A program made the translations under genes and the position numbers. A stretch of DNA of 62,426 nt, filler included, from Hausera hauseri (taxonomy: Eukaryota), in NCBI GenBank assembly GCA_046269625.1. It is 12 parts of 12 records of this genome, joined end to end, with 100 filler letters (N's around TTAATTAATTAA, not from the genome) between each part and the next. Parts side by side here need not be neighbours in the genome. Positions count along the whole stretch, not along the records: positions 1 to 7,130 come from JBJURY010036779.1; 11 more parts are not named here. One strand, 5' to 3'. This document shows positions 924 to 4,400 of this stretch, one piece after another. The notes under the pieces are model-generated. The model saw only the letters and a program-made list of their open reading frames with translations, ran no database searches and was not told where the DNA came from. Each line of letters begins with the position of its first letter. The stretch's first letter is position 1.

Positions 924-1484
924 AGTAGATAGCAGTGTTCTCTCTACCGAACTTCCCAAAAAGTGCACATATCAACCTTGGACCAAGTTTCCCCCACCTA
1001 TTTCGCAATTCTGAGCATATCATGTTTGTGGTCGGAGACCCTCCCCGGCCGGAAACACATGTCACATGTCGCATATGTCACCGATAGAAATCGATAGAGC
1101 TAGATGAGTGGGGAAAAATTTTCTAGCGCGGCGAGAGTCGAAAATTTTACTGGGCGGCGGTAGAAGCAAAAGAAGCAAAAGATGAAATGTTTTATGAGAA
1201 ACGAGTTAGGTGCAAATGTGAAACCGATGCCGGAAAATAGATTGCATACAATTTCAACTCCGTCTGACCATGGGAACATGGGGAAAATTTGAGGGGCAAA
1301 TTTCAAACTGTAAAATTTTTTCATTGTTCAAGTCTGCTGGTTATGGAAATGGGTGGAGCACGCAGCCCATCAGAAGTTGAGCATTTCATATTATAGCCGC
1401 CTCATTATCAGACCAATGGATTGGGGTGAAAAATGCAGAGAGAAAAAACGCATTGTTAAAAAGTCAAAATCATCCTTGTAAAGG
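924..1484 (+). repeat. Conserved ~560-nt non-coding head element, copy A
   Basis: Collinear with 20504-21090 and, more distantly, 19931-20503. Shared blocks include GTGGTCGGAGACCC, AGAAGCAAAAGAAGCAAAAGA, GACCATGGGAACATGGGGAAAA, TCAGACCAATG and AAGTCAAAATCAT. Starts AGTAG and runs straight into (TTCG)n. Confidence 0.85.
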
Positions 1485-4400
1485 CGTTCGTTCGTACGTT
1501 TGTTCCTTCCTTCATCCGCTTGTTCGTTCTTTCGTTCGTTCGATCGATCGTTTTTTTGTTCGATCGTTCGTTCCTTCTTCCGTTCGTTTGTTCGTTTGTT
1601 CTTTCGCTCATCCTTTCGTTCGTTCTTCTGTTCAAACACTTTTTCGTTCTATCGATCACTTGCTCGTTTGTTCGTTCGTTCGTTCTTTCGTTCGTTCGCT
1701 TTATCATGCTTTCGTTCGTTCGTTCGTTCTTTCGTTCATTCGTTTGTTCGTTCTGTCGATCGTTCCTTCGTTCGTTCGTTGGGTCTTTCGTTTGTCCGTT
1801 TGTTCGTTCGTTCATTCGTTCATTCTTTCGTTCGTTCTTCTGTTCAATCGATTGTTCGTTCTTTCGATCATTTGTTTGTTTGTTCTTTCGATCGTTCGTT
1901 CGTTGTTTCGTTCTTTCTTCTGTTTAATTGATTGTCCGTTCGTTCGTTCTTTTGATCGTTCCTTTTTTCTTTCTATCGTTCCTTCATTTGTTCTTTCGTT
2001 CGTTCGTTCTTTCGGTCGTTCGTTCGTTCGGTCGTTTGCTCGTTCGTTCTTTCTTTCTTTTTGCGTTTGTTCATTCGTTCGTTCATTCGTTCGTTAGTTC
2101 GATCGTTCATTAGTTCGATCGTTTGTTCGTTCGCTCGTTCGTTCGATCTTTCTTTCGTTCGTTCGTTTGTTCGTTCAATCGTTCTTTCGTTCGTTCGTTC
2201 GTTCATTCACTCATTGGTGCGTTCGTTCGATCGTTCATTCTTTCGTTCTTTCCTTCGTTCTTTCTTCCGTTCAATCATTCTTACGTTTGTTCTTTTGTTC
2301 GTTCGTTCGTTCGTTCGTTCCGTCATTCATTCCTTCGTTCGTTCGTTCTTCCGTTAGTACGATCTTTCGTTCGTTCTTTTAATCTTTCTTTCGTTTGTTC
2401 TTTCGTTCGTTTCTTCGCTCTTCCGTTCGTTCGTTCGTTCTTTCGTTTGTTCATTTGTTCTTCCGTTCGTTCGTTCGTTTTTTCAATCGTTCTATCGTTC
2501 GTTCGTTCGTTCTTTTGATCATGTGTCTCTTCGTTCCTTCGTTCGTTCTGTGGTTTCTTCATTCGTTCCTTCGTTCCATCGTTTGTTTCTACTTTCGTTC
2601 TTTCGTTATTTCGATCGATCGTTCCTTTGCTCGTTCGTTCCTTCGTTCGTTCCTTTGTCCGTTTGTTCGTTCGTTCTTTCGCTTATTCTTTCGTTCGTTC
2701 TTCTGTTCAAACACTTGTTCGTTCTATCGATCACTTGCTCGTTTGTTTGTTCGTTCGTTCCTTCGTTCGTTCGCTCTATCATTCTTTCGTTCGTTCGTTC
2801 GTTCTTTCGTTCATTCGTTTGTTCGTTCTGTCGATCTTTCCTTCGTTCGTTCGTTGAGTCTTTCGTTTGTCCGTTTGTTCGTTCGTTCGATCGTTCATTC
2901 TTTCGTTCTTTCCTTCGTTCTTTCTTCCGTTCAATCGTTCTTACGTTCGTTCTTTCTTTTGTTCGTTCGTTCGTTCGTTCGTTCGTTCGTTCCGTCATTC
3001 ATTCCTTCGTTCTTTCGTTCTTTTGTTAGTACGATCTTTCGTTCGTTCTTTCAATCTTTCTTTCGTTTGTTCTTTCGCTCGTTTCTTCGCTCTTCCGTTC
3101 GTTTGTTCGTTCTTTCGTTTTTTCATTTGTTCTTTCTTTCGTTCATTCGTTCTTCCAATCGTTCTTCATTTTTTTCGTTCGTTCGTTTGTTCGTTTGTCT
3201 CTTCGTTCCTCCGTACTTTCTGTGGTTGCTTCATTCGTTCCTTCGTTCGATCGTTTGTTCGTACTTTCGTTCTTTCGTTCTTTCGTTCGTTCATTCGATT
3301 GTTCCTTCGTTCGTTTCATAGTTCGTTCGTTTGTCCGTTTGTTCGTACGTTCGTTCTTTCATTCTTTTATTCGTTCTTCTGTTAAATCAATTGTTCGTTC
3401 TTTCGATCATTTGCTCGTTTTTTCGTTCGTTCGTTCGTTCGTTCTTTCGTTCGTTCCTTTGTTCATTTGTCTGTTCGTTCCTTCGTTCGTTCTGTGGTTC
3501 CTTCATTCGTTCGTTCGTTCCTTCGTTTGTTCGTTCGTTCGTTCTTTTGTCAGTTCATTCGTTCTTCCGTTCGTTCGTTCGTTCGTTCGTTCGTTCGTTC
3601 GTTCGTTCGTTCGTTCGTTCGTTCGTTCGCGCGTTCGTTCGTTTGTTCGTTCGTTCGTTCGTTGGTTCGTCTGTTCGTTTCTTCTTTCGTTCTATCGTTC
3701 CTTCGTTCCTTCATTCGTTCGATCGTTCTTTCGTTCGTTCGTTCGCTCGTTTCTTCGTTTGTCTCTTCGTTCCTTCGTTCGTTCTGTGGTTCCTTCATTC
3801 GTTCCTTCGTTCCATTGTTTGTTCCTACTTTCGTTCGTTCGTTCTTTCGTTATTTCGATCGTTTGTTCCTTTGCTCGTTCGTTCCTTCGTTCGTTCGTTT
3901 GTCCGTTTGTTCGCTCGGTCTTTCGTTCTTTCTTTCGTTCGTTCTTCAGTTCAAACATTTGTTCGTTCTATCGATCACTTGCTCGTTTGTTTGGTCTTTC
4001 GTTCTTTCTGTCTGCCGTTCAATCGATTGTTCGTTCGTTCGATCATTTGTTCGTTTATTCGTCCGACCGTTCGTTCGTTCTTCCGTTCATTATTCTGTTC
4101 AATCGATTGTTCGTTCTTTTCTTCCTTTGTTCGTTCCTTCGTTCATTCTGTGGTTCCTTTCTTCGTTCGTTCGTTCGTTCTTTCTTTCGTTCGTTCATTC
4201 GCTCATTCGTGCTTTCGTTCGACCGTTTATTTTTTCCTTCGTTCATTCACTCATTGGTGCGTTCGTTCGATCGTTCATTCTTTCGTTCTTTCCTTCGTTC
4301 TTTCTTCCGTTCAATCATTCTTACGTTTGTTCTTTTGTTCGTTCGTTCGTTCGTTCGTTCCGTCATTCATTCCTTCGTTCGTTCGTTCTTCCGTTAGTAC

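Follow-up and report, generated by a model that had tools for sequence, protein, structure and literature searches.

The window analysed here, a stretch of 62,426 nucleotides from the Hausera hauseri assembly GCA_046269625.1, is a pack of 12 stretches, the first of which (contig C36779) carries one copy of a head sequence, A, and the fourth of which (contig C311055) carries two more, B and C. The three heads start at 924, 19931 and 20504, and these are the only three matches of AGTAG[G/A]TAG in the window (Table 1). As a preliminary description of the same DNA had it, A runs into a long TTCG array, C runs into a short one, B carries the inverse repeat AACGAACG internally (20452-20459), and a TACTACTACTACT run is present behind C; the array of A leaves the end of the contig, and that of C has four pure units. 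That description treated the heads as three diverged copies of one element, which holds for A and C but not for B: in BLAST comparisons, A and C are 78% identical over 613 nt, and B, which is not an equivalent third copy, shares with both of them a core of about 185 nt at 79% identity plus short pieces.

Table 1. Features around the AGTAG heads; positions count along the whole window.
Feature	Position	Strand	Evidence
Copy A, Polinton end starting at a C-type unit of the terminal inverted repeat (TIR) and not preceded by a B unit	924..1484	+	78% to C over 613 nt
Degenerate (TTCG)n array	1485..7130	+	TRF period 4, about 1409 copies, 67% matches; open at contig end
Unrelated repeat family hosting the Polinton insertion	19560..19930	+	720 candidates
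Outer TIR unit B, starts AGTAG	19931..20503	+	Sharp copy start, unrelated flanks; own clade 100/100
B: 13-bp inverted repeat	20286-20298 / 20328-20340
B: GAAC seed	about 20452-20470
Inner TIR unit C, AGTAG terminal motif reiterated	20504..21093	+	About 69% identical to B
TTCG seed that has not expanded, 4 pure units	21094..21109	+
Inner TIR link with TAC run (21162-21174)	21110..21218	+	Element ends diverge at about 21218
Broken adenovirus-type protease (PRO), reading toward the TIR	21263..21634	-	PF00770
Broken 3' part of major capsid gene, cut by contig end	21696..22247	-	81% over 79 aa to stop-free L091 frame

The Polinton remnants that had been noticed beside C are borne out. When its stops are read as X, PF00770 is matched by the protease remnant at E 2.2e-4 (21.4 bits against a cut-off of 21.3). 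The capsid remnant, which itself has no Pfam match, aligns with the uninterrupted frame of the sister copy L091, a frame that in the ESM Atlas resembles clusters of major capsid proteins (score 0.97; 16% of the cluster members carry PF21738); no solved-structure match was found for this frame. The flank upstream of A has no counterpart in other copies except for one 48-nt match, and at 2-460, upstream of A, lies a broken frame of about 150 codons with no Pfam match. As for the sequence in front of B, 18 of 19 other copies of it run past the insertion point with shared non-Polinton sequence and one ends at a contig edge; since these copies run on past the point, B was inserted into another repeat. 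A reading of this sequence as a piggyBac remnant was rejected, as it has no Pfam match and forms a separate repeat family. This family, with about 720 candidates, is in tandem in some contigs and is rich in CACGTG-like motifs.

The heads number far more than the three copies of the preliminary description. In the genome searched (869 Mb, 909,086 contigs), query A gave 3378 candidates and the B head 2214, with 40 scored for each; these are candidate counts and not copy numbers, and queries with the capsid (2287) and the polymerase (2547) gave similar counts in the same genome. Past the C unit, copies continue with a short TTCG run, a link of 108 bp, and then one of two fixed interiors, protease/capsid or polymerase. 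The 59 loci obtained with head queries comprise 19 protease ends, 9 polymerase ends and 31 loci without an assignable arm, and every one of the 28 assignable loci continues into one of these two Polinton arms. The inner edge is sharp, and the alignment stops at 21217-21221 in 16 of 17 polymerase-end copies and at 21194 in the remaining one. The TAC run at 21162-21174 was rejected as an element end; it lies inside the TIR, about 45 bp from this inner edge.

Orientation of the head relative to the Polinton genes was determined at both arms. In L089, the head, the link, the Q arm and the protein-primed polymerase gene pPolB (PF03175, E 6.5e-12) all run in one direction. Contig C27782, with a length of 12,550 bp, carries all six core genes, its full gene order being pPolB, exonuclease-like frame, dUTPase, TBP-like gene, ATPase, integrase, minor capsid, major capsid and protease, and ends in an inverted head. 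Since the head stands before pPolB in the former and inverted after the protease in the latter, it points inward at both ends, in a layout assembled from different copies that are 80-90% alike, both ends never lying on a single contig. The full element, which no one contig spans, is estimated from these pieces at roughly 15-17 kb. The integrase gave an rve match at E 2.4e-5 on L170 (24.9 bits, below the Pfam cut-off of 32.6), and the same gene is present on C27782; the packaging ATPase matched Pox_A32 at E 1.2e-5 on the sister copy L170. The gene that we take to be the minor capsid is labelled from its position and its motifs, with no library match, and pPolB of this family also has an Endonuclease_7 (HNH-type) match.

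Accessory genes were also observed. The TBP-like gene (PF00352, E 2e-7; L170:2-490 and L286:4859-5352, both on the minus strand) is head-to-head with the packaging ATPase in two copies, and the arrangement overlaps a third copy. Between the polymerase and the TBP-like gene, on the strand opposite to pPolB, lie a dUTPase (PF00692) and a frame without a Pfam match that we call exonuclease-like (L120:1359-1811; L286:3002-4019).

Placing the arm labels on a tree built from 92 units takes 7 and 10 changes, which are the modal values of the shuffled labels; such mixing of end labels is expected if both ends are copied together. We conclude that the heads are very probably the TIR of a decayed, high-copy Polinton/Maverick, in which B, C and the link (19931-21218) make up one repeat of about 1.29 kb, and that A is an end of one unit with an expanded TTCG run, likely the product of slippage. 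The first of the two readings offered in the preliminary description, a Polinton terminal repeat with an expandable satellite arm, is supported by the head at both ends of the element and by the kilobase TTCG and GAAC arrays inside heads described below. The end of a Polinton TIR serves protein-primed replication and integrase joining, and by this family knowledge the AGTAG end would be both the replication origin and the site of the integrase cut.

The TIR exists in several forms. Among the 59 loci, 32 have B followed by C, 9 have C only, 4 have B only and 14 are truncated, in counts to which the B query, which cannot find C-only ends, contributes no C-only locus. B and C units form separate clades (100/100, in a tree of 92 units whose bootstrap had not settled), and they are 69% identical whether taken from the same copy or from different copies, as against 85-87% within each type. 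With units differing by 31% and copies by 13-15%, the active lineage would already have carried the two-unit repeat. Both end types occur among the seven C-only rows that group together in the tree (93/70; six of them at 100/96), a grouping that points to a subfamily with one unit; five other C-only rows, A among them, fall outside that group, most of them among the C units of two-unit copies, where A too is placed. Moreover, L051, L277 and L280 carry a B head on a C body, and the existence of such hybrids makes recombination between units the simplest cause of the scattered single-unit ends. Recombination of this kind would likely have given most of the B-only, hybrid and scattered C-only ends. 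The inner AGTAG may still serve as a true end, since the first 14 bases of both units are nearly the same.

B and C could instead be the ends of two Polinton subfamilies, brought together by repeated insertion of one at the very end of another, as their separate clades and the existence of B-like, C-like and intermediate single-unit ends would allow. B, however, is only about 570 bp long, without an interior or a second end of its own, and the B-C junction lies at the same place in 32 of the 59 loci and at both ends of the element; both units of L007 and L091, moreover, group at 100/100, as joint inheritance predicts. Repeated insertion is therefore very improbable; a single ancient capture event may lie behind the B+C arrangement. 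The P/Q pair L007/L091, in spite of its strong grouping in the tree, was rejected as the two ends of one copy, since the flank hexamers mismatch.

Returning to the two-unit TIR, it carries GAAC, ATC, TTCG and TAC runs of variable length. The preliminary description had expected TTCG in other copies of the head, and it is present, at 1-6 units in the 30 copies measured, but the TIR is not the sole source of arrays. Genome-wide, 489 exact junctions were found, of which at least 10 run into 6 or more pure TTCG units; 10 of 489 is a lower bound, since most of the 10 lie at contig ends. A C unit is upstream in nine of these ten, and the tenth locus has no match. Array A stands at the position of the short TTCG seed of other copies, L159 carries 3.5 kb or more of TTCG, behind which come the TIR link, protease and capsid, and L205 has 5 kb of GAAC followed by the tail of B and a C unit. 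In L026 a GAAC run reaches the contig end, and L211, L216 and L217 likewise have arrays inside TIRs. In L159, a non-repeat piece of about 200 bp (approximately 2544-2745) was seen to interrupt the TTCG array inside the TIR.

Among the first 16 (TTCG)9 contigs, four touch the TIR, one abuts the interior of the family, one starts with ATC followed by TTCG, an order typical of the TIR, five are uninformative, and five have a readable flank that is not of the TIR; with 5 of 16 flanked in this way, the TIR is one source of the arrays and is not shown to be the main one. Array A contains an exact duplication of 791 bp (2198-2988 = 4238-5028, offset 2040), which is either a recent block amplification or a misassembly. 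Presumably, a few percent of seeds slipped to longer runs after insertion, and some of these would then have been amplified in larger blocks to kilobase arrays. A bolder version, which we regard as unlikely, would have a nested double terminus whose inner AGTAG still acts as a replication and integration end, so that two-unit parents yield precise single-unit elements like A, with the TIR as the main cradle of the multi-kilobase TTCG satellite and the complementary GAAC and TTCG seeds promoting the expansion of one another.

At the outer edge, the AGTAG motif is where copies abruptly begin, and their flanks are unrelated. In the list of 61 ends, in which A is placed four bases early, 46 begin with AGTAG, and most ends read AGTAGG, not (AGT)2. 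A pyrimidine-purine step stands at positions -4/-3 in 34 of 60 ends (p 1.6e-7, the best of 11 positions; L053, with a misplaced start, was dropped from this test), and of these ends, 29 belong to the 47 B-starts and 5 to the 13 C-starts. The symmetry of the flank profile peaks for a 6-bp site (0.221; next best 0.041), and individual flank hexamers are no more palindromic than by chance (47 of 180 pairs, 50.5 expected). The flanks suggest a 6-bp target site, and the integrase would likely have made 6-bp duplications. The last six bases before 19931, CACGTG, are a candidate for this site, and the Polinton ends of the window, L227 and L224 were observed to be inserted at CACGTG sites in the repeat family at 19560-19930.

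As to the 6-bp target-site duplications that the preliminary description proposed to tabulate, no duplicated pair was seen among the ends examined in this assembly of 909,086 contigs, and the single hexamer match among 61 ends, that between the flanks of L038 and L062, is at chance level. A search for the partner of the B+C end of the window gave 67 pattern matches, of which 30 were examined, with the expected flank in none of the seven other exact matches; a second pattern gave five matches, and no head follows the single one of these in which AGTAG is kept. L227 was rejected as the partner end, its head being 95% identical to another copy as against 84% to the window, and its empty site continuing differently.

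Helentron/DINE-1 elements are short and self-contained, with a 3' end of their own, and they insert at T or TT sites without duplication. The second reading of the preliminary description, an undescribed satellite-seeding element of this type, corresponds to a separate, non-autonomous element of Helentron/DINE or MITE type, which would seed TTCG satellites and lie in Polinton debris by chance. Such an element would account for the very many copies, for the simple repeats and the inverted repeat inside the head and for the 31 of 59 loci without an assignable Polinton arm, and central arrays of Helitrons and Helentrons are a known satellite source in the part of a review available to us (PMC12628747). 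Against it, all 28 assignable loci enter one of the two Polinton arms from one shared divergence point, and no independent 3' end was found, copies running into Polinton genes instead; many of the loci without an assignable arm are cut off by the edge of their contig, by an array or by a further insertion. The base before the start is also mixed (A20 C15 T14 G12 in 61 ends) and not a T or TT site, unlike in Helentron/DINE-1. We thus consider the independent element largely refuted and very unlikely.

The head had further been called structured, with a stem kept in all copies, and this we could not uphold. Window B has a perfect 13-bp inverted repeat, and its core folds with z -2.7; in A the stem fails to form (z -0.38), and C prefers another hairpin (core z -2.4). 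The stem is perfect in 6 of 39 B units and in none of 45 C units, and two of its pairs are disrupted, with no compensating change, in almost every C unit. Covariation in the stem across 84 cores (8 of 92 extracted cores were dropped as offset or partial) was 0.082, a value reached by 224 of 500 shuffles, in a test to which neutrally decayed copies give low power. A GAAC-TTCG seed hairpin was rejected as a general fold, with z -3.6 in L007 but +1.0 in window C and +1.6 in L030. That the head encodes a selected structured RNA, similar to VA RNA, with the stem as its functional core, is therefore highly improbable even with 29 of 84 cores below z -2 beside the low values of B and C in the window, since covariation is lacking, stem columns are as variable as those outside the stem (0.076 vs 0.073 and 0.074 vs 0.079), C units break two pairs uncompensated and A does not fold the stem at all. 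No RNA holder is listed for the TIR. More likely, the 13-bp inverted repeat would be a dyad protein-binding site in the origin region rather than a selected RNA fold.

Other Polinton-related sequences were observed in the window and the genome. The start of a different repeat, also headed by AGTAG, occupies 34255-34928 of the window; it has a tandem unit of 161 bp (2.8 copies), is 76-80% like L221, and probably represents a TIR from another Polinton family. A second, more distant Polinton remnant at 22912-27338 has integrase, major capsid, protease and ATPase matches at 31-42% identity, and pPolB remnants of other families (10163-11246 and 44154-47769) are 25-41% identical to P0001, an uninterrupted polymerase of 1235 aa on a 10-kb ENA contig that is 76% identical to the polymerase of the present family, the next being 55-58%. 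Several repeat families (L221, L223, L224, L228, L231, L233, L235, L239, L240, L248 and L249) have the same or a near-identical AGTAGGTAGA terminus on different bodies, with no TTCG or GAAC seeds in the part examined, and one such type is inserted into the TIR of the present family (L028) and into a TTCG array (L210). Related elements were not found by single-protein search, and an alignment search led to 94 distant loci, none of which matched the head.

In its gene content, with pPolB, integrase, packaging ATPase, protease and major and minor capsid genes between long inverted repeats, the element is like Polinton/Maverick. According to the sections of the sources that we could draw on, the TIRs of vertebrate Mavericks are 46-1447 bp long with end motifs of AGT type, and their duplications are of 6 bp (PMC8097293), and nematode Polintons have TIRs of 100-1500 bp and duplications of 5-8 bp (bioRxiv 10.1101/2023.08.22.554363). 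The AGT-type terminus and the TIR of 0.7-1.3 kb found here are within these ranges, as far as those sections give them, and the Endonuclease_7 match recalls an HNH insertion in pPolB2 mentioned in the available text. Compared with the Polintons covered by the same sections, three features differ: the TIR often consists of two diverged units in tandem, both starting with the terminal motif, its simple-repeat seeds expand to kilobase arrays, and the family has TBP-like and dUTPase accessory genes. Unlike vertebrate Mavericks, with (AGT)2 in the accessible part of the survey (PMC8097293), most ends here read AGTAGG. In the material that was open to our search, with Repbase, subscription papers and supplements outside its scope, no description came to light of a Polinton TIR with two units, or of microsatellites growing inside such a repeat. 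A Dugesia preprint, in the portion at hand, describes expanded Mavericks, which is not evidence about the Hausera hauseri genome.

The spread of short seeds by a mobile element and their expansion in some copies is as in transposon-seeded satellites. The seeds discussed in the available text of two reviews are central arrays of Helitrons and Helentrons, MITE-borne (GTCY)n and TIR-derived satellites (PMC9659126, PMC12628747); the word 'Maverick' is in neither review, and 'Polinton' is not in PMC12628747. Unlike in those satellites, the carrier here is an autonomous-type Polinton, with the seed in its TIR. A Polinton-linked satellite of locusts matches coding sequence and not a TIR, going by the part of the paper we could use (PMC4935994). 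The second copy of the terminus inside the end of a protein-primed linear genome is similar to embedded inverted terminal repeats (ITRs) of adenovirus. In adenovirus mutants, duplicated or embedded ITRs are near-identical, whereas the two units here are about 69% identical and have been carried through a genome-wide burst; our literature search for these duplicated or embedded ITRs found no paper.

What is unusual in this repeat is the reiterated AGTAG terminus together with the expanding seeds. Its value is mostly for annotation, as it labels either end of a Polinton family that has thousands of ends in the genome and accounts for some of the long TTCG arrays at which the assembly breaks. That transposons seed satellites is a well-known general principle, and the known seeds of microsatellites now include the TIR of a virus-like element. 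Knowledge of how Polintons select and restore their ends comes mainly from analogy with adenovirus and phi29, and the two-unit TIR is a natural case for this question.
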